From an uncultured Candidatus Saccharibacteria bacterium (lineage in GTDB: Bacteria > Patescibacteriota > Minisyncoccia > Phycocordibacterales > DAORIS01): DNA of 64,000 nt. Numbering within the stretch: the stretch's first letter is position 1; every line of letters begins with the position of its first letter. Both the position numbers and the translations under genes were made by a program. Below the pieces are notes generated by a model. It searched no databases. It was not told the origin of the DNA and was given only the letters and a program-made list of their open reading frames with translations. This document shows positions 15,114 through 29,603 of this stretch, in pieces. The stretch is from NCBI GenBank assembly GCA_964644035.1, contig CAZXUH010000002.1:756-64755 (forward strand), in the 5' to 3' direction.

Positions 15114-17801
15114 ATGAGCAAGATGTATAAGAAAAAATACGTATTCCTTACTGCCCTGAGCGTAGTTTTGATTGTTTTTCTTATTCCAAAAGCAGCTCAT
15201 GCTGATATTTTTGATATTGCACTGGATTCTGCTCTCAATGCAGGCATAGGATTGATCCGAGGACTGATGATTGGAATTCTTGCTCTTTTCAGCTGGATAC
15301 TTTTTGCAGTAGGTAGCCTGCTCGATCTCACGGTGAAGTACACAATTATTGAGATGGGTGAATTTGTGAATGGTGTTAATTCGATCAGCATTGCCTGGAA
15401 ATTCTTCCGAGACATAGCAAATATGTTCTTTATTTTTGTTCTGACATATGCCGGAATCACCACTATTTTGGGTGTACAAAGATCAGATTGGAAAACTATT
15501 CTTCGCAACATTGTCATTGCTGGCCTGCTCATAAACTTTAGCCTTTTCTTCACAAAAATTCCTATCGACATTTCAAATATTATTTCTATCCAGCTCTACA
15601 AGGCTATGACAAGCAACGTCACTTCGACCGTTGCAGGACAACAAGTCTCTGGTATGGCAGTGGAATTCATGAACCACCTAAAAGTTCAGACTATTTATAG
15701 ACCTTCAGGGGAGGGGGTCATTGACGCAACAGAAGTAAATCTTGTTGACCAACTCAGCACTATTCTTATCTCATCGATCTTTGGTATCACGATTATACTC
15801 ATTACAGCGTGTGTCTTTTTGGCAATTGCCGCTATGCTCCTTCATCGCTTTGTAAAACTCATATCACTAATGATTCTTTCTCCTTTGTACTTCTTAGGCA
15901 TGATTTTGCCAAGTGCCAAGGAATACGGAGGAAGGTGGAAACAAGACCTGATAAGTCAGTGTATATTTCCCGTAGTATTGTTTGGTCTTCTCTATGTAGT
16001 AGTACTATTCCTACGAACAGGCACATTGAGCAAATTCTCAGCTGGAACTTTTGCAGAAGGACTCAATGGCTCAGGAACAATCATTGCAAATCTTTTGATC
16101 AATTACGGATTGATCATGGCTATGATTGTCGGATCACTTACAGCAGCACAAAAAGCTGGTGGTGAGGGAGGTAGATTTATGGACAATAGAATTAAGAGTT
16201 TGCAAAAATTCCCAGGCAGATTGCTATCATCAACTGCAAATACAGCAGCGAGAACAGCATCATGGGCAGGTGGTGCTGCCGTGCGCCAAGTAGTACGTGG
16301 TGGAGATACAGTTGCTGAGAAATCTGGCGCAAAGAAATGGGCAACGACCAGACTCAAGGCTGGAGCTGCTACTCAAAGCGAAGATCTCAAACTTAAAGGC
16401 AATAACACTGTCACAAAAATTGCTGGCGGTGCAATAAACATTGCAACAGGACTTACTGGTATACGCCTTCTTGCAGCAAAAGCAACACGAGGAGCTTCAA
16501 GTGCCTCGCTCAAAGCAGCTGGCAACTTTGCAAACAATGCAAGCTTCGATGCAATGGGTGTAGAGAAGAGAGGTTTTGCTAAAATCGATTCAGATGAAAG
16601 AGAAAAACTTACAGCTTCAAAAGTTTCTTATGAAGAACAAGTTAGAAAAAATGAATTCAAGAAAGCTCAGACAGAATTTAAAGACGTTTCTAAAATTAAA
16701 GTTAGAACAAATGATGATGGTAGAAACTTTGTCGACATTGGCGACGGCGTAGAAGTAGAAATGAGAGATGATGAGAGAGTTCGAGGTGTCGACATGCTAC
16801 TTAGCGAAGTTAAGAAAATTAGAAAACAATACACTGGTCTTCTTAAAAATCGCCGACCTAAGGAACTCGATAAGGTTAAATTCAACGATATTAAAGCTGC
16901 AGCAGATATTCTTACTGCCGAGCAGTTTACATATCTCGTTGGCAAAGAAAGCAAACTTACTGATCAAGAGAAGGATACACTCACCACCGAAAGAGTTAGT
17001 ATGCCAAAAGTTCTCATGGAAAGACTTGAGAGTGCTGAGAGGGAATTTGAGGAAGAAAACGATCCAGTTCAGAAAGCTGCTCGGGAAAATGCACTTAAGG
17101 CTGCACAGAAAAAGGTCAACGACTCACTCAAGAAACTTACCGACAAAGAAATGGAAGTTATTGCACCTCATTTCTTCGATACCAATAAAGACAGGACGTC
17201 TCTTCTTGAAACATTTGCAAAAAGCATCAGTCAAAGTACCGCCGACAAGCTCAAAAAACTTGATAAGCTTGGCGATGATGACAAACTACTTATCAATAAG
17301 ACCCGCAAGGCCGTCTTCCAAGCACCTCTCAATGCCTTTAGGACTGCATCTGCAACAGTTAATCGCCTACGAATGGCTGGTACAAGCAGCGGAACTGAAT
17401 TTGATAGAGCCCAAGCTGAAGCAAACAGGCAAGAAAAGAAGCTTAAGAGCGCATTTGCAAGATCATCGGGAGAGCAGATCGCAAAAATGGGTTCAGAATT
17501 TGTCACTGATCCTAAAATCATTGAACTTCTTGATGGTAAGCACTTGAAGAAGCTTGTGGAACTTGCCGAGGATATGGATAGCGTAACGATTAACGGTCAG
17601 GAAAGAAATCCATTTGAATATATTGCTGAAGAGAAAATAAGAATGCTTGAAGAACATGCAGCAGGAAATCGAGAAGAAAAACCAAAAGGTATAGACTTCA
17701 TCCTTAGGAACGAGAACTCAGGCATATTTGATGTCGATGCAGATGAAGTCAGAACCACGATTCAAAATATAAGGTCAACAACACGAACACAACAACCATA
17801 A
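15114..17801 (+). CDS. VirB6/TrbL-like polytopic membrane protein with long charged C-terminal extension
   Basis: Signal peptide, then at least 6 predicted TM helices over ~330 aa, then a ~500-aa K/E/A-rich coiled-coil-like tail. Its position immediately upstream of the VirB3-like and VirB4 genes supports the call. Confidence 0.5.
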   Translation: MSKMYKKKYVFLTALSVVLIVFLIPKAAHADIFDIALDSALNAGIGLIRGLMIGILALFSWILFAVGSLLDLTVKYTIIEMGEFVNGVNSISIAWKFFRDIANMFFIFVLTYAGITTILGVQRSDWKTILRNIVIAGLLINFSLFFTKIPIDISNIISIQLYKAMTSNVTSTVAGQQVSGMAVEFMNHLKVQTIYRPSGEGVIDATEVNLVDQLSTILISSIFGITIILITACVFLAIAAMLLHRFVKLISLMILSPLYFLGMILPSAKEYGGRWKQDLISQCIFPVVLFGLLYVVVLFLRTGTLSKFSAGTFAEGLNGSGTIIANLLINYGLIMAMIVGSLTAAQKAGGEGGRFMDNRIKSLQKFPGRLLSSTANTAARTASWAGGAAVRQVVRGGDTVAEKSGAKKWATTRLKAGAATQSEDLKLKGNNTVTKIAGGAINIATGLTGIRLLAAKATRGASSASLKAAGNFANNASFDAMGVEKRGFAKIDSDEREKLTASKVSYEEQVRKNEFKKAQTEFKDVSKIKVRTNDDGRNFVDIGDGVEVEMRDDERVRGVDMLLSEVKKIRKQYTGLLKNRRPKELDKVKFNDIKAAADILTAEQFTYLVGKESKLTDQEKDTLTTERVSMPKVLMERLESAEREFEEENDPVQKAARENALKAAQKKVNDSLKKLTDKEMEVIAPHFFDTNKDRTSLLETFAKSISQSTADKLKKLDKLGDDDKLLINKTRKAVFQAPLNAFRTASATVNRLRMAGTSSGTEFDRAQAEANRQEKKLKSAFARSSGEQIAKMGSEFVTDPKIIELLDGKHLKKLVELAEDMDSVTINGQERNPFEYIAEEKIRMLEEHAAGNREEKPKGIDFILRNENSGIFDVDADEVRTTIQNIRSTTRTQQP

Positions 17802-17802
17802 T

Positions 17803-18546
17803 ATGATTGCATTTTCAAAAGCAGATAAAATAAAAGCCTACAGACTTCTTTCACCGCAAGAAAAGAATACGGTGTTTTCTCAAACAGTTGGCGAGAAAAT
17901 AGATCTTATCTCAATGAAGTATGGATTGGATCCTGCAAAGTCCAAACGTTTCAAATACAGTTTAGGGTTGTTTCTTCTTGGTTTGATTACTAAAAATGAC
18001 ATTCCTCAAGTAATCAATGAGCGCTTGCCCGAACTACCAAATAACGAGGTTATGGAGGATATTAAGAGCATCTTTTTCCCAGAAGTAGAAAAAGTTATTC
18101 GAGAGTACAAACCCGATCCCGAGGAAGAAGAGCCCAACGCCAAGGACGAACCTCTTACTGAAGAACAAAAACAGATGGACGCTCAACTTGAGTCAGAACC
18201 TGAAGAAGTAAGTAGCGAAGAAGAGGGTATAGACCGTGAAGATCTTCTCAAAGCAATTGAGGATCCTGAAGAAAAAAATCTTCAAAAAAGTGCTGCGGCT
18301 TCACAGGATAAATATAGAGAACCTATCGAAACACCAAAACCAGTATCGACTGGCAATCCGGTAGAAGATCGTCTCAAAGGTATCGTATTTACTCCAAAAG
18401 AAACAAAACAAGTAGTGGTAGAAGCACCAAAACCTCAGCCTTTGCCAAGTAAACCTGTTGCAAAACCAAATACATCTATACCTCCGCTTCAGCAAAGCGT
18501 CCCTAAGTATCAAGGAAACGATCCGTACAGAGAACCTCTTTCGTAA
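17803..18546 (+). CDS. hypothetical acidic, Pro-rich protein
   Basis: 247 aa. The central region is rich in E/D/P (EEEEPNAKDEPLTEEQ...). No family recognised. Confidence 0.4.
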   Translation: MIAFSKADKIKAYRLLSPQEKNTVFSQTVGEKIDLISMKYGLDPAKSKRFKYSLGLFLLGLITKNDIPQVINERLPELPNNEVMEDIKSIFFPEVEKVIREYKPDPEEEEPNAKDEPLTEEQKQMDAQLESEPEEVSSEEEGIDREDLLKAIEDPEEKNLQKSAAASQDKYREPIETPKPVSTGNPVEDRLKGIVFTPKETKQVVVEAPKPQPLPSKPVAKPNTSIPPLQQSVPKYQGNDPYREPLS

Positions 18547-18652
18547 TAAAAAGGGCTGCTGTCGGATGAACAGCAGCCCAGGAACCCCATGGTTCCACCA
18601 AAGCCATGTGAAGTATGTATGTATAAAGTGGATGTATGCAACTGTATAAATA

Positions 18653-19108
18653 GTGCATAATATAGTCATGCAATTTCAGGTTCCTCAATTTATCGAAGTA
18701 GAAGATAAGATTTTCGGACCACTGACAATCCGCCAGTTCATCTATATTGCCGGCGGAGCAGGTATGGGCTATATCTGCTATGCTCTCTTGCCCTTGATCT
18801 TGGCTATACCTGCTATCGGCGCTGTCGGCACACTTACATTTCTATTGGCTTTTTATAAGTACAATAACCGTCCTTTTATCTATTTTGTCGAATCGGCTTT
18901 TAAATACAGGACCAATAATCGGCTCTATATATGGAAAAAGGATCAGCCTACGCCAAAAGCTCAGGAGGAAAAGAAAAAAGCTGCAGATCAACCAAAACTT
19001 TTTGTCCCAAAGCTCTCAGATAGCAAACTCAAAGACCTAACTTGGAGTCTTGATATCCGTGAAAGTCAAAATCCGCTGACAGGTAAAGATAACGAGACGA
19101 ATACATAA
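18653..19108 (+). CDS. VirB3/PrgI-like small membrane protein (T4SS)
   Basis: 151 aa with two adjacent TM helices near the N-terminus. It is encoded directly upstream of VirB4, the conserved VirB3 position. Confidence 0.45.
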   Translation: MHNIVMQFQVPQFIEVEDKIFGPLTIRQFIYIAGGAGMGYICYALLPLILAIPAIGAVGTLTFLLAFYKYNNRPFIYFVESAFKYRTNNRLYIWKKDQPTPKAQEEKKKAADQPKLFVPKLSDSKLKDLTWSLDIRESQNPLTGKDNETNT

Positions 19109-19154
19109 ATAGAGAGGGGAAACATAGTTATAATTTTAGGATATAATAGAAAGA

Positions 19155-19796
19155 ATGGCACCTATATCAGAAAGCGCAAAGGCAACGCAAGATTTCGTAC
19201 CGATTCAGGAGGTTCGAGACGGTGTTATTGTACTCAAAGATGGCTCGCTACGAGCTGTAGTACTTGTTTCATCGATCAACTTCGACCTCAAATCAGAAGA
19301 TGAACAGAAATCCATCCTTTTTCAATTCCAAAACTTCCTCAACTCCCTCGATTTCTCTATTCAAATGTTCATCCAGTCGAGAAAGCTCGATATACGCCCA
19401 TATATAGCGCTTTTACAGGGCAGACTCAAGGAGCAAACCAATGATCTTATGAAGGTTCAGGTGCAAGAATACATAGAATTCATCAAGAAATTCACCGATT
19501 CGAGTAATATCATGTCAAAAAGCTTCTTTATTGTTGTTTCCTATGCTCCTGCAACACTGACAATAAAAAGAAATCCTCTTTCAAAACTGTTTGGTAAGGG
19601 TGAATCGACACAAACTGTCGAAAATACAAAGTTTGAAGAAGCACGAAGCCAGCTCGAAGAGCGTGTATCGGTCATAGAGCAGGGTCTTGTACGCACCGGA
19701 GTCAGAGCAGCACGCTTGGGCACAGAAGAAGTGGTCGAACTCTTCTATAAGATGTTCAATCCTGGCGACACCGAGAAGCCGATTATTCAATTATAA
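19155..19796 (+). CDS. virB4: VirB4-family protein, N-terminal domain fragment (Gram-positive TcpF/Orf16/PrgJ-type N-terminus)
   Basis: ...FVPIQEVRDGVIVLKDGSLRAVVLVSSINFDLKSEDEQKSILFQFQNFLNSLDFSIQMFIQ... resembles the N-terminal ~200 aa of monoderm VirB4 ATPases, from my recollection of Tn916 Orf16-like proteins. It stops 8 nt before the ATPase ORF in another frame. Confidence 0.6.
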   Translation: MAPISESAKATQDFVPIQEVRDGVIVLKDGSLRAVVLVSSINFDLKSEDEQKSILFQFQNFLNSLDFSIQMFIQSRKLDIRPYIALLQGRLKEQTNDLMKVQVQEYIEFIKKFTDSSNIMSKSFFIVVSYAPATLTIKRNPLSKLFGKGESTQTVENTKFEEARSQLEERVSVIEQGLVRTGVRAARLGTEEVVELFYKMFNPGDTEKPIIQL

Positions 19797-19803
19797 TATT
19801 TAT

Positions 19804-21642
19804 ATGTCATTACTAGGAGGACTTTTCGGCAAAAAAGAAGAAGCAACACCGGCAAATACATCTATTCTGCCTCAACAGATTTATGAAGCTGGAGTACTCG
19901 AGCTCAAGGATATTATTGCTCCCTCTGCACTTAAAATAGGCCCTAGAAGCCTCTCTCTGGGAGACAAGATTCTTCGATCATTCTTTGTTATTTCATATCC
20001 TCGCTATCTTACAGAGAGCTGGTTTTCTCCTATCATCAACCTCGACAAGGTATTTGATGTTTCAATATTCATTCATCCAGTAGATACTGCAAGAGCACTC
20101 AAGCAATTTCAGAAAAAAGTAGCTGAAGTGCTTAGTCAGATCAGTGCTCGTGAAGAAAAAGGCTTGGTACGCGATCCTAAACTCGATACAGCCTATCAAG
20201 ACCTCGAATCATTGAGAGACAATCTCATGCAAGCTCAGGAAAAACTCTTTGATGTTGGTCTTTATATAACACTCTACGGAGAAAGCGAAGAAGAACTCGA
20301 TAAAATCGAATCTGAAATCAAATCCATCCTCGAAGCAAAGCTTATTTATATAAAACCTTCTCTTTTCCAACAAGAACAAGGCTTCAGAAGCACGTTGCCA
20401 ATCCAAGACGACCAATTGGCCGTGCATTCCAAACTCAATTCTTCACCTCTTTCTAGTCTTTTTCCTTTCGTCTCATTTGACCTGACATCCGATAGGGGAA
20501 TTCTCTACGGCATCAATAGACACAATTCAAGTTTGGTGCTTTTCGATCGCTTCTCACTCGAAAACTACAACTCTCTTATCTTTGCAAAATCCGGTTCTGG
20601 TAAATCATATACAACCAAACTCGAAATCCTACGCTCACTCATGTTTGATACTGACGTTATTGTTATTGACCCAGAAAGAGAATACGAGTACATGGCTCAA
20701 GCAACAGGTGGAAGATATTTCAATATCTCTCTCAATTCAGACAACCATATCAATCCTTTCGATTTGCCTGTGCCCAATGAAGATGAGACTCCAGCAAGCG
20801 TCTTACGTTCTCAAATCATCAACCTTGTCGGACTATTTCGTATCATGATGGGAGGTATTACACCCGAAGAAGATGCAATTATTGACCGAGCCATCACTGA
20901 AACATATGCTCTCAAAGATATTACTCCTGAATCTGATTTTTCATCGATCGAAGCACCTCTTCTTTCTGACTTTGAACTTGTCCTTGCTGGTATGGAAGGA
21001 GGGGAATCACTTGCACAACGCCTTACAAAATACACTCGTGGTACATGGGCAGGATTTATAAACAGACCATCGAACGTTGATATCAATAAAAAGTTTGTCG
21101 TCTTTTCTCTCCGAGATATGGAAGACGAACTCAAGCCTGTCGGTATGTATATCGTCATGCATTATATTTGGAATGCAATCAGGAGAAATCTCAAGAAGCG
21201 CTTGCTTGTAATCGACGAAGCGTGGTGGATGATGAAGTCCGAAGATACGGCCTCATTCCTACTCTCTTTGGCAAAACGTGGACGCAAATACTATCTCGGT
21301 CTTGCAACAATTACCCAAGACGTCGACGACTTTATGCGTTCTCCATATGGTCAACCGATCATCACCAACTCTTCGATTCAGCTTCTCTTGAAGCAATCAC
21401 CATCTTCTATCGACAGACTGCAGCAAGTATTCAATCTTACTGACGAAGAAAAATATCTATTGCTCGAATCAGGAGTAGGAGAAGGTATATTCTTTGCTGG
21501 TCTCAAGCACGTGGCTATAAAAGTTATTGCATCATATACAGAAGATCAGATTATCACTTCTGATCCATCGCAGATTCTCGCTATCAAGGAAGCCAGAAGG
21601 GAACTTGAACAAGCTGGCGGCGAGACACCTGCGCAACAATGA
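19804..21642 (+). CDS. virB4: VirB4/TrbE/CagE-family T4SS ATPase (central and C-terminal parts)
   Basis: CagE_TrbE_VirB-like middle region, Walker A FAKSGSGKSY, Walker B LLVIDEAWWMM, and a C-terminal ...LATITQDVDDF... region. The start is taken at MSLLGG, the first ATG after the upstream stop. Confidence 0.85.
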   Translation: MSLLGGLFGKKEEATPANTSILPQQIYEAGVLELKDIIAPSALKIGPRSLSLGDKILRSFFVISYPRYLTESWFSPIINLDKVFDVSIFIHPVDTARALKQFQKKVAEVLSQISAREEKGLVRDPKLDTAYQDLESLRDNLMQAQEKLFDVGLYITLYGESEEELDKIESEIKSILEAKLIYIKPSLFQQEQGFRSTLPIQDDQLAVHSKLNSSPLSSLFPFVSFDLTSDRGILYGINRHNSSLVLFDRFSLENYNSLIFAKSGSGKSYTTKLEILRSLMFDTDVIVIDPEREYEYMAQATGGRYFNISLNSDNHINPFDLPVPNEDETPASVLRSQIINLVGLFRIMMGGITPEEDAIIDRAITETYALKDITPESDFSSIEAPLLSDFELVLAGMEGGESLAQRLTKYTRGTWAGFINRPSNVDINKKFVVFSLRDMEDELKPVGMYIVMHYIWNAIRRNLKKRLLVIDEAWWMMKSEDTASFLLSLAKRGRKYYLGLATITQDVDDFMRSPYGQPIITNSSIQLLLKQSPSSIDRLQQVFNLTDEEKYLLLESGVGEGIFFAGLKHVAIKVIASYTEDQIITSDPSQILAIKEARRELEQAGGETPAQQ

Positions 21643-22343
21643 AGCGTCATGCAAAAAAAATAGGAATATTTACTTGTATAGCCCTAATAATTGCTGCTGG
21701 ATTTTTTGACCTTATACAATTTTTACTCGATCTTGTGGTGGCAGGTTTGATTGCGGATACTATTTTAGCCTTACTGTTCTTTATACCTCTCAATTTATGG
21801 CTTTTACTGACAGGTAGACTCAATGGAAAAGTGGCTGCCAATTCATTGATAGCTTTTATTATAGGTCTCATACCAGTCATAAACGCTCTTCCAGAGTGTT
21901 TGTATGCAGTGGTAATGATTATTATTTTTAATAATCTAAAAGAAATCCTTCAGGTTGTAACAAAGATGGCTCCGTATATGAAAACTGCAGCAAAATTTGT
22001 TCCACCCTTGCAAGCCCCAGTAAAAACAATCGAGGTTGTACAGAAAATAGACAAAGCAACAGGAGGAAATATAGCTAAGAAGATAGCAAAAGAAACTCAA
22101 ACAGGCGACCAGACGCTCGATTTTAAGTCATTTGATGGCTCAACACAGGCTCAAAACTATACAAATGGCGTTGCAAACCAAGTTCTTGTCATAAAAAAGA
22201 AGGGTGGTTTGACTGAAAATACCCTTGATCTGCAAAATAAAATGCAGTCTGCAGCTGACAGACCAAGTGGAAATCTTCCCCAAATTTCAAATAGGAAAGG
22301 TGTTACAATAGAGGGTGCAAATGAAAAAAGGCCTATTGCATAA
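21639..22343 (+). CDS. hypothetical T4SS-associated membrane protein
   Basis: 234 aa. Three or four N-terminal TM helices and a hydrophilic C-terminus. The start ATGA overlaps the VirB4 stop, indicating translational coupling. Confidence 0.45.
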   Translation: MKRHAKKIGIFTCIALIIAAGFFDLIQFLLDLVVAGLIADTILALLFFIPLNLWLLLTGRLNGKVAANSLIAFIIGLIPVINALPECLYAVVMIIIFNNLKEILQVVTKMAPYMKTAAKFVPPLQAPVKTIEVVQKIDKATGGNIAKKIAKETQTGDQTLDFKSFDGSTQAQNYTNGVANQVLVIKKKGGLTENTLDLQNKMQSAADRPSGNLPQISNRKGVTIEGANEKRPIA

Positions 22344-23313
22344 CATCGCTATTTTCACCACTCTCTTGATAGCGGTTTTTGTCTGTGGCATAACTTCTAC
22401 TCATGCAGAAGTGACCAATCCTTCTGACGTAACATCTATTATCTCCACTGTCAGCCCTGAGTATCCGAAAGCGTTTGATGAAGTTACTATTTCTATCAAG
22501 AGTTATGCTATGGACCTACAACGATCACTTATACGTTGGTATGTCGATGGAAAACTACTGTCAGAAAAGACTGCACTGACACAACTATCAGTACAAGCAG
22601 GGAATTATGGCACCACAAAGACAGTAAAAATACAGGTTATTGCTGCCGATGGTAGAGTAGCTGAAAAATCAATCTTTATAACACCTTCGGATTTGAGCCT
22701 TGTATGGCAAGCTGATACGTATACCCCTCCTTTTTATAAAGGAAAGCGTCTCTATAGCGCTAGCTCAGACATACTCATGATGGCAATACCAAGTGGTAAG
22801 TACGATTCAGATAAAATTATCTTTACATGGAAACAAGATGCCGACGTCATACCAAATAGTGGGGGGCTTGGAAAAAACACTATTACTATTCCAGGAACAC
22901 TTGTCACCAGAGAGAAAATGATCATTGTAGAAGCAATTTCTGTCGATGGTACCTATCATGCACGTCAGATAGTTACTCTGTCTCCAATTTTTACAAAAGT
23001 ATTGATGTACGAAAACAATCCACTGTTTGGAGTATGGTATGAAAACGCTTTGGTAAAAAACCAAACTATCGCATCAGCAGAATTCAAAGTGGCAGCATAT
23101 CCATTCTTTTTCTCTACAAAAAGCAGATTTTTGGATGATGTTCAGTATCTCTGGAGCGTAAACGGTGCAGGAGCAACGACAGCCTCTGGTAAAAGTTCTA
23201 TAACTCTCCAAAGGGATCAGAGTATTTCCAAAGCAGGTCTAGGTGTTGAGGCTCGGCATAAAAGCAAAATACTGCAAGATGCAAAAACATCAGTAAATCT
23301 AAACTTTAAATAA
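22315..23313 (+). CDS. secreted protein with internal ~100-aa beta-rich repeats
   Basis: Signal peptide (IAIFTTLLIAVFVCGITSTHA) and repeated Ig-like modules (...IRWYVDGKLL..., ...IIFTWKQDADV..., ...VQYLWSVNGAG...). Confidence 0.45.
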   Translation: MQMKKGLLHNIAIFTTLLIAVFVCGITSTHAEVTNPSDVTSIISTVSPEYPKAFDEVTISIKSYAMDLQRSLIRWYVDGKLLSEKTALTQLSVQAGNYGTTKTVKIQVIAADGRVAEKSIFITPSDLSLVWQADTYTPPFYKGKRLYSASSDILMMAIPSGKYDSDKIIFTWKQDADVIPNSGGLGKNTITIPGTLVTREKMIIVEAISVDGTYHARQIVTLSPIFTKVLMYENNPLFGVWYENALVKNQTIASAEFKVAAYPFFFSTKSRFLDDVQYLWSVNGAGATTASGKSSITLQRDQSISKAGLGVEARHKSKILQDAKTSVNLNFK

Positions 23314-23314
23314 T

Positions 23315-24244
23315 ATGACCCAAACTATTTCAACTTTGTATTTTAAAAAAATAATTTCACTACTAGTCTTTTTAACAGCTATTATCGCTGGTTTTTCTTT
23401 TTTAACTTCACTGACGCATGCTGTAGAGATAGACACCAGTTACGATCCACTTGTTAAGATTGAAGGTGTCACCGATGCCCAAACAACCGATGCAGATATT
23501 GGTTCTTATGTATCAGGTGCATATAAATGGACGATTTCGCTCGCAATTGCCTTGGCGGTGATCATGTTTACCTTCTACGCTTTTCAATACCTACTTTCCG
23601 AATCTACTATTACGAGCAAAGCTCATGCAAAAGAGGGGATGAAGAATGTTATTATCGGTCTTTTACTTATTTTTGCAGCATATCTCGTACTCCAGACAAT
23701 CAACCCTCAACTTGTAGCATTCAATTTAACCTTAGATTTGCCCGAAGCTACTTCGGTTTCAGAATCAGATAATGGTTGTGCTGGAGCAGATATAAAACCA
23801 ACTGGTGTAGGAGTTTATTACATTACAAATATAGAATGCCGAAAAGCTATTCCAGGCAGTGATCAGTTCGTTACTACTCAAGCAACGCGTTACAACGTGT
23901 ACAGTGGCTCTATTAATAGATGCCAGCAAGATGTGAGGGATGGGAATCTAGGTAACAATGTTGTCGGATGTGTAATATACAGCTCCAATTGGATTATTCG
24001 CCAAAGAATACAACTAACTGCCTCTCAAGAAGGTGGTGCTGACTACTCTGAATCCACATACTATCCTTCTGATCTAAGTAAGGGCTGGAGTACGGAGGGA
24101 GAGTGCCAAGCTCAAATTCCAAACTACGGTAAAACCGATATACCTGCATACTGTGCTGAAGAAAGAGCGGGGGAATGGGAATTTTTTGGTTGCTCTGTTA
24201 TAAAAGAATGTCATCGATACGACGGTAATATCACTACTGAATAA
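23315..24244 (+). CDS. VirB2/TrbC-like pilin-topology protein fused to a Cys-rich C-terminal domain
   Basis: Signal peptide, a ~40-aa spacer, then two TM helices (ISLAIALAVIMFTFYAFQYL / VIIGLLLIFAAYLVLQTI) as in T4SS pilins. The C-terminal ~170 aa carry 9 Cys. Confidence 0.45.
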   Translation: MTQTISTLYFKKIISLLVFLTAIIAGFSFLTSLTHAVEIDTSYDPLVKIEGVTDAQTTDADIGSYVSGAYKWTISLAIALAVIMFTFYAFQYLLSESTITSKAHAKEGMKNVIIGLLLIFAAYLVLQTINPQLVAFNLTLDLPEATSVSESDNGCAGADIKPTGVGVYYITNIECRKAIPGSDQFVTTQATRYNVYSGSINRCQQDVRDGNLGNNVVGCVIYSSNWIIRQRIQLTASQEGGADYSESTYYPSDLSKGWSTEGECQAQIPNYGKTDIPAYCAEERAGEWEFFGCSVIKECHRYDGNITTE

Positions 24245-24250
24245 ACAATT

Positions 24251-25555
24251 ATGCTATCAAAAAAAACACTTCTCCTATTTCTAGTTCTCGTCCTGCTTGC
24301 AGTCGGAGCAGCGTTTTATTTTGTATCAGTAAATAAGCAGGGTGGAACGGTTCTTAATAGCGTTAGAAACCTTCTTCCTTTTGGCAGCAACGATATTTCT
24401 TCTGGCAGCATAGGAACTCCCTCGGATAATATTCCGGGTGGAACAGAGGACGAACCTATTGTTGTTAATACAAATACCGATGCACCAGTACCGGTCTTTA
24501 GAAAAATTGCAGATGGACCAGTATCTGGCTTCACAGTATTTACTAGACAACGCACTGAAATTCGTGAAGGTAAGAAAGTAACGATTACTGAAACACCTAT
24601 TAGATACATTGAGCGAAAAAACGGCAATGTCTTTGAAACATTCTCAACATCGACACGAACAAATCGTCTTACCAACACTACCTATCCACGTATTCAGGAA
24701 GCATTCTTTACCAATACAGGAAATTCTCTTGTTATCAGAAGCCTTGGTGACACAGATGAAATAAAAACATATCTTGCTGATATTATTTTGCCAGAAACAA
24801 CTTCTACTTCTACGGTTTTTGATGAAGAATCACTTGGATCTCTCAAGGGCTTCTATATTAAGGACGATGTTTCTTTTGTAGACATTTCTCCTGATACCAA
24901 AACAATACTTCTTGCTACAGAAGACGTATCAGGTACCTCTATTCAGACTATAGATACAAAAGGTGGTGGTACAAAAAATATATTTAGCTCAAGACTAGGG
25001 GAATGGCTCGTACAGTGGTATAGCGCCGACACAATCGCCCTTACATCTAAACCTTCTTCTGGTGTTAATGGTCTCACCATGCTTCAGAATATTAGAAATA
25101 GCACATCTGAGAAACCAGTTACCAATGTCCCTGGCCTCACTTCTCTCGTCAATTCTAAGGGCGATAAAATTCTATTCTCACAAGCCCAGAACAAAGGCTT
25201 CGCACTTGGATATTATGATAAAAAAACCGGTCTAAAGACCCAAGCAGACAGACCAACCCTTCCAGAAAAATGCGTCTGGTCAAAGAAACAAACAAATATC
25301 GTATACTGTCTTGTGCCAAACATAGTCAACAGTGGAACATATCCGGATGATTGGTATCAGGGTACTATTAGTTTTACTGACAGCATCTGGAAACTAGACA
25401 CAACTTCAAATTCTATCTCTTCTCTCTATGATCCTGCAGATACGGACAACGCTGAAATAGACGGTATTAGACCAGCACTTTCTCCAAACGAAGATTATCT
25501 TATCTTTATGAATAAAAAAGACGGTTCACTCTGGTCACTCAAACTCGAAATCTAG
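24251..25555 (+). CDS. secreted/membrane-anchored protein with beta-propeller-like (TolB/PD40-like) C-terminal region
   Basis: N-terminal TM (LLLFLVLVLLAVGAAFYFV). C-terminal repeats such as ...KGDKILFSQ..., ...NIVYCL..., ...YLIFMNKKDGSLWSL... resemble PD40/WD-like blades. Confidence 0.4.
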   Translation: MLSKKTLLLFLVLVLLAVGAAFYFVSVNKQGGTVLNSVRNLLPFGSNDISSGSIGTPSDNIPGGTEDEPIVVNTNTDAPVPVFRKIADGPVSGFTVFTRQRTEIREGKKVTITETPIRYIERKNGNVFETFSTSTRTNRLTNTTYPRIQEAFFTNTGNSLVIRSLGDTDEIKTYLADIILPETTSTSTVFDEESLGSLKGFYIKDDVSFVDISPDTKTILLATEDVSGTSIQTIDTKGGGTKNIFSSRLGEWLVQWYSADTIALTSKPSSGVNGLTMLQNIRNSTSEKPVTNVPGLTSLVNSKGDKILFSQAQNKGFALGYYDKKTGLKTQADRPTLPEKCVWSKKQTNIVYCLVPNIVNSGTYPDDWYQGTISFTDSIWKLDTTSNSISSLYDPADTDNAEIDGIRPALSPNEDYLIFMNKKDGSLWSLKLEI

Positions 25556-26316
25556 TTCTTAACTGTATTCGATTCTACAATTACTACTGGTTCTGTAAGC
25601 TTTCGGCGATGGCGTCGTAGAAGAAGCTCTTGGAAGACCATAAAAATGTTGCTGGTGATGAAATAAAGAGCAATAAAGGCAGGTAGTCTGAATGAAATGA
25701 AGAAAATCATTATCGGAAGGATGTATTTGATCTGAACACTCATACTGCGAGCAATATCATCTTGGAAAGATGGTTTTACACCTGGCTTTTTTGGCTCTAC
25801 CGTCATCATTGGCTGGAACTGACCCTGAATAAACTGCGTAATAGCTGCTATAACAGCAGTTAGAATGCTTTTCTGAGTTATATCGAGCAAACCTAGGAAT
25901 GTTGTGCTGACGAACAATGTAGGATGAATAAATGGGTAGAGTAAACTTTCATTGATCTGAGTCAGTGTACCACTTGAGAAGATGTGGTAGAGAGAAATAA
26001 TAATAGGAAGCTGAATAAGAAGCACAAAGAAGCTAGAGAGAGGATTGATTTTATTAGCTTTGTAGAGTTTGAGTATTGCCTGACCCTGCTCCTTAACATC
26101 CTTTATCTCATTTTTGATCTTTTTGAGCTCTGGATCTACCTCTTTGAGCTTAATCTGTGTCAACAAAGCCTTCTTTTGGAGAGGATAGAGGGCAAACTTC
26201 ACAATAACTGTGAAAAGAACTACCGCCATACCTGCATCTATCCCTGGAATAGCCAAAATAAGAACAAAGGCATTGTAAAGCGGTATATAGAATATCTGTT
26301 TGATTATATTAAACAT
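25552..26316 (-). CDS. yidC: membrane protein insertase YidC/Oxa1 (short monoderm type)
   Basis: 254 aa. ...LYPLQKKALLTQIKLKEVDPELKKIKNEIKD...KINPLSSFFVLLIQLPIIISLY... is typical of YidC. Confidence 0.85.
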   Translation of the reverse strand: MFNIIKQIFYIPLYNAFVLILAIPGIDAGMAVVLFTVIVKFALYPLQKKALLTQIKLKEVDPELKKIKNEIKDVKEQGQAILKLYKANKINPLSSFFVLLIQLPIIISLYHIFSSGTLTQINESLLYPFIHPTLFVSTTFLGLLDITQKSILTAVIAAITQFIQGQFQPMMTVEPKKPGVKPSFQDDIARSMSVQIKYILPIMIFFISFRLPAFIALYFITSNIFMVFQELLLRRHRRKLTEPVVIVESNTVKN

Positions 26317-26318
26317 CG

Positions 26319-26666
26319 TTAGATTCTAGCTTTTTTAAGCAGAAAGTCTATTTCTTCCTTCAACTGAGCTAGTCTGACTGTAGAAATGGACTTTTGAATG
26401 AAAAACACAAAAGTATAGGGCTTAGTGAGATCCTTACCTAGTATATTTTTGATGATTGGATAGACTCTACGTCTTGACCGATTCCTCAAAACTGCTGTCT
26501 TCTCTATTTTTTTAGACACTACAACAGAAAATTTTGATTTTGGGAAAACAGCCTCGGAATTCCTTGTTATTTTTAGTGAGATATGATCAGAAGAAAAATG
26601 ATTACCTTTCTGAACTTGAAGGATTCGATGGGTGCGAGCATCAATACGATGACTCTTGGGGAACAT
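26319..26666 (-). CDS. rnpA: ribonuclease P protein component
   Basis: 115 aa, a basic protein lying between rpmH and yidC. MFPKSHRIDARTHRILQ... matches the RnpA family. Confidence 0.8.
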   Translation of the reverse strand: MFPKSHRIDARTHRILQVQKGNHFSSDHISLKITRNSEAVFPKSKFSVVVSKKIEKTAVLRNRSRRRVYPIIKNILGKDLTKPYTFVFFIQKSISTVRLAQLKEEIDFLLKKARI

Positions 26667-26696
26667 AGAGGATTATTTTGTCAAAAAAAAGACAGT

Positions 26697-26831
26697 TTAG
26701 ACGGCCAATCGAGCGCGTCCCTTCCTTCGACGGCGTGTAATAGTGTTGCGTCCGGTCTTGGTTGATTTTCTTTTTAGAAAACCATGAACCTTTTTGCGGC
26801 GACTTTTCTTTGGTTGAAATGTTTGAGACAT
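26697..26831 (-). CDS. rpmH: 50S ribosomal protein L34
   Basis: Not in the ORF track because it is only 44 aa. My manual translation of the minus strand gives [44 protein letters not shown], which is the canonical L34. Confidence 0.9.
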
Positions 26832-26939
26832 AAAACGAGGTCGAATTAAATATTAACAGGTTATGCACACATTATAAACATATAAATCAAAATTTAACAA
26901 GTTCTCTAATATCAATCCAGGTATATAATTCTTATCACT
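26832..26939. promoter_or_regulatory. rpmH-dnaA divergent intergenic region with DnaA-box-like 9-mer (part of the origin region)
   Basis: TTATGCACA at 26861-26869, one mismatch from TTATCCACA, in an AT-rich context. Confidence 0.4.
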
Positions 26940-28289
26940 ATGAATGATCAAGACTTGTGGAATGTTGCTTTAAAAGAACTAGAACCTATTGTTTCTAAAA
27001 GCAATCACGGTCTGTTTAAAAAAACATCGATCATGAAACTCGAGGATGGCACTGCTCATATTGCTGTACCAAGCCTCTTTGTAAAAGAAGTTTTATCGAC
27101 AAAATTCAATAAAAGCATTCTCAGGGCTCTACGTCTTCAGTCTGACACAATCAGAAATATCTCCTACACTATAAGCGAATTGAGTGCTCAGGATAAGAAA
27201 AAAGAGGTGGTAGTAATCAAAAAACAGGAAACTACGGCTCAACTACCGCTTAATGACTACTATGTAAATAAAGATGACAATCTAAATCCTCGTTATACCT
27301 TTGATTCTTTCATAATTGGCCCCTTCAACCAACTCGCCCACGCCGCTTCTCAGGCGGTCATACAAAAGCCGGGTACAGCATACAATCCGCTCTTTATATA
27401 TGGAGATACAGGTAGGGGAAAGACGCATTTGATCCAAGCAATAGGCAATCAAATGAAGCATTTGTATCCAAGTAAGAAAGTGTTCTACTTAACCTCAGAA
27501 AAATTCGCGACAGAATACTTTAACTCTTTGCAAAACGGAAAAATAAACCAGTTCAAACAAAAATACCGAGTGTACGATGTATTTATCATGGATGATATAC
27601 AATTTTTCTCAAATAAAGAGAAAAGTCAGGAAGAATTGTTCCATGTATTCAACGAACTCTACGACAACAACAAACAAATCATCTTTTCTTCAGATAAACA
27701 CCCACATTACATTCAAAATCTCGAAGAAAGGCTCAAATCTCGCTTCGGAGCAGGTATGATTGTCGATATTCCAGCTCCAGATCACGAATCGAGAGCTGCT
27801 ATTTTGAAAGCAAAAGCTCGACATCACAATATAGAACTCACTCACGACATAATTGATTTTATTGCTTCAACAGTTGAAGCAAATATTAGAGAACTCGAAG
27901 GAATTATCAATTCGATTATTATTCGAAGTCAAATAGAAGCCCGATCACTTTCTCTTTCTGATATAAAAACAATTATAAAAGGTCCGGCTCGACCTCGACG
28001 CAATGTTTCTGTAAAAGATGTCATTAAAACTATATCTCAGTTTTACGATGTAGAAGAGAAAAGTATATATGAGAAAACCCGAAAAAAGGAGGTGGTTAAG
28101 CCACGCCAGGTGATTATGTACATACTCAGAGAAGACTACGATGTATCATATCCATCGATAGGAGAGAAGCTTGGCGGTAGAGATCATACTACTGTTATTC
28201 ATTCATGTGAAAAGGTAAAAGGGGATATAAAAACCAATCCTGTATTTGCTGAGGAGATAGAAAGAATTCGTTCGATTATCTCATGTTGA
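26940..28289 (+). CDS. dnaA: chromosomal replication initiator protein DnaA
   Basis: AAA+ Walker A GDTGRGKTHL, sensor and box VII regions, and a C-terminal domain IV helix-turn-helix. 449 aa. Confidence 0.95.
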   Translation: MNDQDLWNVALKELEPIVSKSNHGLFKKTSIMKLEDGTAHIAVPSLFVKEVLSTKFNKSILRALRLQSDTIRNISYTISELSAQDKKKEVVVIKKQETTAQLPLNDYYVNKDDNLNPRYTFDSFIIGPFNQLAHAASQAVIQKPGTAYNPLFIYGDTGRGKTHLIQAIGNQMKHLYPSKKVFYLTSEKFATEYFNSLQNGKINQFKQKYRVYDVFIMDDIQFFSNKEKSQEELFHVFNELYDNNKQIIFSSDKHPHYIQNLEERLKSRFGAGMIVDIPAPDHESRAAILKAKARHHNIELTHDIIDFIASTVEANIRELEGIINSIIIRSQIEARSLSLSDIKTIIKGPARPRRNVSVKDVIKTISQFYDVEEKSIYEKTRKKEVVKPRQVIMYILREDYDVSYPSIGEKLGGRDHTTVIHSCEKVKGDIKTNPVFAEEIERIRSIISC

Positions 28290-28508
28290 TAAAACTGGGG
28301 AAAAAAATCGTACAACTTCTTAATAAACCCTTGATAAATACAGAAAAAATATTTTTAAAGAAAAATTAAAAAAATAATCCGATGTTTTCCACAGAAAATC
28401 AGAAAAATTTTTCAGAAAAAATCGTTACAGAGAAACAAATTAAAGGGTTATCAACATATCCCCAGGCCTAATAGTAATAATAAATAAATTCTTATATTAA
28501 TAATACAT
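28290..28508. promoter_or_regulatory. candidate oriC / DNA unwinding region between dnaA and dnaN
   Basis: A very AT-rich 219-nt spacer with DnaA-box-like TTTTCCACA (28385-28393) and TTATCAACA (28448-28456), plus long A/T runs. Confidence 0.5.
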
Positions 28509-29603
28509 ATGAAAATCGAATGCACTAGAGAGAGTTTGGTAGACGTGTTAAGTAAGGCTGAGAAAATAGCTGGTAAGAATCTCACTATGCCGATTTTGAG
28601 TTGTATTTTACTTGATGCAAGCACAGATCGATTGCTTATACGCGCCACAAATCTTGAGTTGGCACTCCAGGTCACGATTCCAGTTAAAATCGCTAATAAA
28701 GGTATTGTGGCCGTTCCAGCGCATACATTTAGCTCCTACATAAACACGTTGGATAAGGATAAGATAGTTACACTTGAGTTGATAGAACAAAATCTTAAGA
28801 TTTCTTCCGCTTCAAACACTACTCTTATTAAAACATTCAATCATGAAGATTTTCCAACTATCCCAGAAATAGAAAATCCTACTTCTTTTACTATAAAACC
28901 TTCTCTTTTCTCAGATGGTTTGAAGTCGGTTTCATATTCTTCGGCCCAAACAAGCATGAAACCAGAGCTTTCAAGTGTATATATTTATACTGAGGACGGG
29001 AATTTGGTTTTTGTTGCTACAGACTCATTTAGACTGGCTGAAAAGAAAATAAAGGCTAAGTTTAGCGACGAATGGAATACTCTTATTCCTGTAAAAAACA
29101 CCCCTGATATCATACGAATACTCGATACTATGGCCGAAGATGTGGAAGTAATGGTTACTAAACACCAAATTGTATTTAGGGGTAAGAATCTCTACCTCAC
29201 TTCTAGGGTGATAGAGGGATCTTTTCCTGATTATCGACAAATCATTCCAAAAGATTCAAAAACTGAAGTCACTATTCTTCGTCAGGATCTTCTTAAGGCT
29301 TTTAGAGTTGCAACTATCTTTTCTGATAAGTTTAATAAATTAAACATGAAGGCAATTCCATCTCAAAGTAGAATGGAAATCAAAACAAGTAATCAAGATG
29401 TTGGAGAAACACTTACCAATATCGAAGGTACAGTCACAGGAGAAGAAGTGGATGTAAATTTCAACTATCGGTATATTTCAGATTGCATGCAATCAATCGA
29501 AACGACAAGTATTGTATTCCAATTCAACGGTCTTGGAAAATTGGTGATTAAAGGAGTAGGGGATGCTATGTTTATGTATCTTGTAATGCCAATGAATCGA
29601 TAA
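28509..29603 (+). CDS. dnaN: DNA polymerase III beta sliding clamp
   Basis: 364 aa with a three-domain clamp pattern. It sits immediately downstream of dnaA. Confidence 0.9.
   Translation: MKIECTRESLVDVLSKAEKIAGKNLTMPILSCILLDASTDRLLIRATNLELALQVTIPVKIANKGIVAVPAHTFSSYINTLDKDKIVTLELIEQNLKISSASNTTLIKTFNHEDFPTIPEIENPTSFTIKPSLFSDGLKSVSYSSAQTSMKPELSSVYIYTEDGNLVFVATDSFRLAEKKIKAKFSDEWNTLIPVKNTPDIIRILDTMAEDVEVMVTKHQIVFRGKNLYLTSRVIEGSFPDYRQIIPKDSKTEVTILRQDLLKAFRVATIFSDKFNKLNMKAIPSQSRMEIKTSNQDVGETLTNIEGTVTGEEVDVNFNYRYISDCMQSIETTSIVFQFNGLGKLVIKGVGDAMFMYLVMPMNR

Follow-up and report, generated by a model that had tools for sequence, protein, structure and literature searches.

Does a VirB4 ATPase that is encoded in two separate open reading frames (ORFs) represent a broken gene or a true pair of genes? 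This question is raised by positions 19155-21642 of the stretch of DNA analyzed here (64,000 nt, hereafter called the window), where two ORFs follow each other on the same strand. The first of them, ORF1 (213 aa; 19155..19796, plus strand), begins with the ATG at 19155 and ends with the TAA at 19794-19796, and the C-terminal end of its product is ...FNPGDTEKPIIQL*. The second, ORF2 (612 aa; 19804..21642, plus strand), begins with the ATG at 19804 (MSLLGG...), ends with the stop codon at 21640-21642, and lies in the +1 frame relative to ORF1. The initial annotation had described the two ORFs, the TAA stop and the restart at MSLLGG in the +1 frame correctly, but the spacer between them, TATTTAT (19797..19803), is 7 nt long and not 8 nt. 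The two products together comprise 825 aa instead of the approximately 826 aa estimated earlier, and this is indeed the size of a single VirB4.

Our results indicate that the locus is very probably a genuine and ancient two-gene arrangement, located in a chromosomal, origin-proximal type IV secretion system (T4SS) locus of a Patescibacteria genome of the Paceibacteria type. That is, ORF1 is a TrsD-like protein, namely the N-terminal subdomain of VirB4 as a separate polypeptide, ORF2 is a short-form VirB4 ATPase, and these two conserved, independently encoded polypeptides together equal one VirB4. The initial annotation treated the split as an anomaly and left three explanations open: a genuine split gene, a recent frameshift leading to a pseudogene, and an assembly or homopolymer error. 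The genuine split gene stands, and the other two fall with the results on related loci and assemblies described below. Moreover, the split arrangement is already known and published (PMC12102498); it is the standard state in Patescibacteria, and the small protein has already been named TrsD-like.

We fetched 80 loci of Paceibacteria-type Patescibacteria (e.g., Taylorbacteria and Zambryskibacteria), one per GTDB species. One of the 80 was cut by a contig end, which left 79 informative loci. In all of these, the ORF1 homologue ends with a stop codon of its own and the ORF2 homologue begins with its own ATG, at the position equivalent to that in the window, and a fused gene was found in 0 of the 79. 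The initial annotation had named a split conserved across several independent genomes as the mark of a real two-gene arrangement, and the 79 species-level loci display exactly this. The spacer between trsD and virB4 ranges from -4 to 491 nt with a median of 6 nt, and it is 20 nt or shorter in 59 loci. The short spacers often have the form TAAnATG or ATGA, and the spacer of -4 nt corresponds to an ATGA overlap in five loci. The frame of the second gene relative to the first is +1 in 33 loci, +2 in 30 and 0 in 16.

The values of nucleotide identity at codon positions 1, 2 and 3 were 0.71, 0.83 and 0.39 for ORF1 and 0.80, 0.90 and 0.42 for ORF2, and 68 columns of ORF1 are invariant among 39 sequences. 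Both genes are independently terminated and initiated, and both are under purifying selection throughout the clade. As for the start of ORF2, the tblastn alignment extends to its residue 1, at the equivalent ATG, in 46 of the 79 related loci. A mechanically called ORF of 651 aa that starts from the TTG at 19687 was rejected as the true form of the gene: the homologues begin at the ATG equivalent to 19804, and the stretch upstream of this ATG (LYAPESEQHAWAQKKW...) plays no part in them. No Shine-Dalgarno sequence precedes ORF2, which is uninformative, since by eye few of the 17 listed gene starts in the window have one.

In four loci (L029, L036, L037 and L067), a spacer of 421-491 nt separates the two genes, and an ORF lies within it. 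The spacer ORF of L037 matches Pfam 23S_rRNA_IVP (122 bits), and those of L029, L036 and L067 were read by eye only. These spacer ORFs are flanked by inverted repeats (L029:4631-5051, L036:4634-5124, L037:4649-5112 and L067:4315-4756). About 10 other loci (e.g., L016, L035, L044 and L063) have spacers of 80-130 nt at the same spot, several of which resemble, by eye, remnants of inverted repeats. The pattern suggests that a small mobile element has inserted repeatedly into the trsD-virB4 spacer.

The product of ORF2 matches the CD1110 VirB4 family (NF045971) with 375.2 bits, above the curated cutoff of 325, and covers positions 185-733 of the 752 positions of this profile. It also covers positions 292-893 of 894 in the VirB4_plasma profile and positions 264-725 of 792 in TIGR00929. 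A match to Pfam P-loop_TraG (98.8 bits, cutoff 25.8) and an alignment with the solved C-terminal domain of VirB4 (PDB 4AG5, E 3.3e-43) were obtained as well. The Walker A motif GSGKS is found at aa 264-268 (20593-20607), and the Walker B-like motif LLVIDEAW at aa 467-474 (21202-21225). Since residue 255 of ORF2 is aligned to residue 445 of TrwK, ORF2 is without approximately 190 N-terminal residues, which is roughly the size of ORF1. That is, ORF2 consists of the second half of the VirB4 N-terminal domain and the RecA-type ATPase domain; a complete N-terminal domain is not present in this polypeptide, and the missing segment is supplied by ORF1. The best 120 homologues of ORF2 are 595-645 aa long and are all stand-alone proteins. 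A different kind of interruption is seen in the VirB4 of a Zambryskiibacteriota metagenome-assembled genome (MAG) (L024:4632-8426), a protein of 1264 aa in which an intein of about 650 aa lies directly after the Walker A motif GSGKS. This intein carries a LAGLIDADG endonuclease (Pfam Intein_splicing and LAGLIDADG_3).

The initial annotation had proposed that ORF1 corresponds to the N-terminal region that is fused to the ATPase in Gram-positive VirB4 proteins. The complementary profile coordinates, the alignment with TrwK and a natural fusion protein described below bear this out. In the NCBIfam search, ORF1 matched positions 2-124 of 752 in the CD1110 VirB4 profile, 100-237 of 894 in VirB4_plasma and 4-170 of 792 in TIGR00929. 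On these three full-length VirB4 profiles, ORF1 and ORF2 are collinear and do not overlap. ORF1 is a stand-alone protein within the range of about 200-230 aa, its gene has a VirB3-like gene on one side and a short virB4 on the other, and it has homology to the N-terminal part of VirB4, as a TrsD-like protein should. Its best 120 homologues are 209-223 aa long, and all of them stand alone. The protein P0001, which is identical to ORF1, carries a precomputed match to PF26593 ('TraC-like'), and a Pfam copy older than PF26593 gave no match for ORF1. Searches of the PDB by sequence, with both the single sequence and a profile, returned nothing meaningful for ORF1. When an AlphaFold2 (AF2) model of ORF1 (predicted local distance difference test score, pLDDT, 71.5) was compared with the PDB using Foldseek, the best 14 matches were all TrwK/VirB4. 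Many of the more distant TrsD-like proteins (280-478 aa; e.g., P0272, P0282, P0337 and P0389) have long tails that are low in complexity and enriched in P, Q, A and T, and these sit C- or N-terminally; ORF1 in the window has no such tail.

Among the best 150 cluster representatives for ORF1 at 50% identity, 149 are unfused, and the sole fusion is P0311, a protein of 797 aa. Residues 5-214 of P0311 align with residues 8-208 of ORF1, and residues 225-793 align with residues 29-596 of ORF2; the gap between the two aligned pieces is only about 10 residues. P0311 matches TIGR00929 in one continuous stretch, 17-750. The alignment with P0311 therefore means that ORF1 and ORF2 are exactly collinear with single-chain VirB4. 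The 213-aa protein is homologous to, and collinear with, the first 200 or so residues of single-chain VirB4. Linker-like tails make up the first 30 or so residues of ORF2 and the last few residues of ORF1. The gene for P0311 (L081:544-2937, MAG GCA_964615945.1) lies downstream of prgI, approximately 2.4 kb from dnaA, and P0311 is either a true secondary fusion or the result of an indel error in its MAG. Single-chain VirB4 proteins (the CD1110 family, the Mbov_0397 family, TcpF and TrwK/VirB4 of R388) consist of one polypeptide, whereas there are two in the window. ORF1 and ORF2 nevertheless span the same profile positions end to end, and the ATPase domain is homologous to that of 4AG5 and TrwK.

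The split has a close counterpart in the T4SS of other Patescibacteria. In the survey of Patescibacteria by Quiñonero-Coronel et al. (2025; PMC12102498), which used the MPF_FATA profile for TrsD (CONJScan), TrsD outnumbers every other T4SS component, it adjoins virB4 in 1,664 of 2,272 copies, and it is described as 'remotely homologous to the N-terminal portion of VirB4'. The same paper reports that T4SS clusters of Patescibacteria are often near dnaA. In Ca. Southlakia epibionticum ML1, TrsD counts among the essential proteins (PMC12102498; Wang et al. 2023, PMC10633639), and the essential T4SS locus of this bacterium is SEML1_0006-0019 (PMC10633639). The window shares with these systems a small TrsD-like protein and a short VirB4, PrgI/VirB3-like and pilin genes nearby, and a chromosomal location near dnaA. 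We found no substantive difference, and the window is one more instance, in a genome of the Paceibacteria type.

A split of the same kind is found in the staphylococcal plasmids pSK41/pGO1 (MPF_FATA, pGO1 subclass), in which the genes have the same order, i.e., the VirB3-like trsC, then trsD, then trsE. In pSK41, trsD (227 aa) is separated by 14 nt from trsE (672 aa), and in the window a PrgI protein of 151 aa is followed by the protein of 213 aa, a spacer of 7 nt and the protein of 612 aa. The match to the CD1110 profile starts at position 183 in pSK41 TrsE and at position 185 in ORF2, and residue 36 of ORF2 is aligned to residue 36 of TrsE; the break point is therefore the same in pSK41 and in the window. 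In contrast, the two ATPases are very divergent in sequence (23% identity). In addition, pSK41, a conjugative plasmid, encodes a relaxase and a coupling protein, whereas, according to the literature, the locus of Patescibacteria is chromosomal and usually without a relaxase. The main text of Guglielmini et al. 2014 (PMC4027160) makes no mention of 'TrsD'. A paper on the pELF plasmid (PMC13492992) was also considered for comparison and proved irrelevant: its TraD is a VirD4-type ATPase.

Several results weigh against the assignment of ORF1 as the TrsD-like portion of a split VirB4. The match of ORF1 to the TrsD/TraD family NF041427 (E 1.5e-9, 37.9 bits) is far under the cutoff of 200, a family that pSK41 TrsD itself matches with 227.6 bits. 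The similarity of ORF1 to pSK41 TrsD in pairwise BLASTP is weak (20% identity, E 0.024). The AF2 model of P0311, built from an unpaired alignment, is too poor for the packing of the domains to be judged (pLDDT 56.7; predicted template modeling score, pTM, 0.38). ORF1 is a homologue of TrsD/TraD and lies outside the limits that NCBI sets for the subfamily.

If a recent frameshift had split a single virB4, the locus would be a pseudogene or a decaying gene. The frame of ORF2 is open for 117 nt 5' of its ATG, back to the TTG at 19687, and overlaps the end of ORF1, so that a single indel in 19687-19796 would formally fuse the two frames, as the initial annotation had noted; P0311 also shows that a fused relative exists, as 1 of the 150 cluster representatives. 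However, the split is present in every one of the 79 loci, in all three frames and over the whole range of spacers, the positions of the ORF1 stop and the ORF2 ATG are conserved, and purifying selection acts on both ORFs. That is, the interruption is not specific to one lineage, and the identities at the codon positions are not those of relaxed selection. A real frameshift looks different. In the virB4 of L075 (L075:4653-6447), the frame is broken near residue 250, and the tblastn segments q1-252 and q250-599 overlap and differ in frame; this break, which is probably an assembly or sequencing error, contrasts with the conserved trsD/virB4 boundary. We therefore consider a recent frameshift in the window to be extremely improbable. 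It is equally hard to believe that an assembly or homopolymer error made an artificial stop and frame change here. The frameshift in L075, which is a related MAG, and the general frequency of indels in MAGs are all that speak for such an error. The 151-nt junction (19680-19830) and the surrounding 2.2-2.6 kb are base-identical in four independent assemblies (SRR14271359, SRR14271332, SRR14271354 and SRR14271336), no homopolymer of at least 4 nt occurs in 19680-19810, and the architecture is the same in every related genome.

Programmed recoding, by a +1 frameshift or a bypass of the TAA, would yield a fused VirB4 beside or instead of the two products. The short spacer and the +1 offset in the window would fit this explanation, but the homologues of ORF2 begin at their own ATG. 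Moreover, no conserved recoding signal is possible, because the offsets are 0, +1 and +2, the genes overlap by ATGA in five loci, and an ORF intervenes in four loci; neither read-through nor recoding in any form is compatible with the intervening ORFs. The chance that recoding operates at this locus is thus negligible. The remaining alternative concerns the function of ORF1. The TrsD-like protein might be an independent accessory factor, such as a regulator, an adaptor or a chaperone-like subunit, that shares only its ancestry with the VirB4 N-terminus. This is improbable in our opinion, if less so than the foregoing explanations. The profile coordinates of the two proteins are complementary and not duplicated, and ORF2 is without exactly the segment that is present in ORF1. 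The natural fusion joins both pieces through a linker of about 10 residues, the genes are tightly adjacent, and the spacers suggest translational coupling in 59 of the 79 loci.

The genuine two-gene arrangement can be considered in terms of mechanism as follows. Both polypeptides would be made from one transcript, and their translation is probably coupled, as is suggested by the very short or overlapping spacers. The TrsD-like and VirB4 polypeptides would then associate non-covalently, and the VirB4 N-terminal domain that they form would be functional. In the R388 structures (PDB 7O41 and 8RTB), the N-terminal domain of VirB4 touches VirB3 and holds the hexameric ATPase in place beneath the membrane channel. 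If TrwK/VirB4 of R388 is taken as a guide, the rebuilt N-terminal domain may dock the hexameric ATPase onto VirB3/PrgI at the base of the secretion channel.

A more speculative idea is that the break point, identical between Patescibacteria and the pGO1/pSK41 subclass, is a shared derived character, not a convergence at a domain boundary, and that the free TrsD-like subunit may in addition have gained a regulatory or adaptor role. We regard this combination as doubtful and put it forward only tentatively. If the break point were a shared derived character, it would identify the monoderm conjugation lineage from which Patescibacteria obtained their T4SS. If the TrsD-like protein had such a role, it might, for example, set the timing of ATPase docking onto PrgI/VirB3, something that a fused VirB4 is unable to do.

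The genes around the pair belong to the same system. The gene order is prgI/virB3-like, then trsD-like, then short virB4. The gene directly upstream of ORF1 (18653..19108, plus strand) encodes a PrgI/VirB3-like small membrane protein that matches PF12666 PrgI (E 6.2e-12, 46.3 bits, cutoff 27). On identical contigs, gene callers started this gene 15 nt further in, which gives a protein of 146 aa, and in L081 and L083-L086, a prgI-like gene likewise precedes the TrsD-like gene in the gene calls. On the other side, the stop codon of virB4 and the start codon of the following gene overlap (ATGA, 21639-21642), and the operon is tightly packed. This next gene (21639-22343) encodes a predicted membrane protein of 234 aa that has no Pfam matches. 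Further downstream lies a gene of the same cluster for a protein with a T4SS pilin domain (23315..24244, plus strand; PF18895 T4SS_pilin, 27.5 bits, cutoff 26.6). An ORF of 895 aa (15114-17801) heads the T4SS cluster and has no significant Pfam match. By eye, the N-terminal half of its product is hydrophobic and apparently multi-pass, and the C-terminal half is long and charged; it is a possible candidate for a VirB6-like channel component.

The whole cluster, from the 895-aa membrane protein through the PrgI-like, TrsD-like and VirB4 proteins to the pilin-domain protein, directly abuts yidC, rnpA, dnaA and dnaN (window 15114-29603). Pfam matches identify yidC (60KD_IMP; 25552-26316, minus strand), rnpA (Ribonuclease_P; 26319-26666, minus strand), dnaA (Bac_DnaA, 223.7 bits; 26940..28289, plus strand) and dnaN (DNA_pol3_beta; 28509-29603). 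Since these four genes lie directly downstream, the T4SS cluster is origin-proximal, as published for Patescibacteria.

The correct annotation of the locus is therefore a TrsD-like protein and a VirB4, not a disrupted gene or a pseudogene, and neither pipelines nor readers should 'repair' the pair. Beyond annotation, the split matters little, and the split state of the ATPase has already been catalogued. The present analysis makes small additions: the two pieces of the split line up in exact collinearity with single-chain VirB4, the break point is shared with TrsD/TrsE of pSK41, and rare fusions such as P0311 occur. The collinearity and the exact break point are a small refinement of the published description of TrsD as a remote homologue. 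The T4SS of Patescibacteria itself is of real interest, as it is essential for epibiotic growth in the sole cultivated model.
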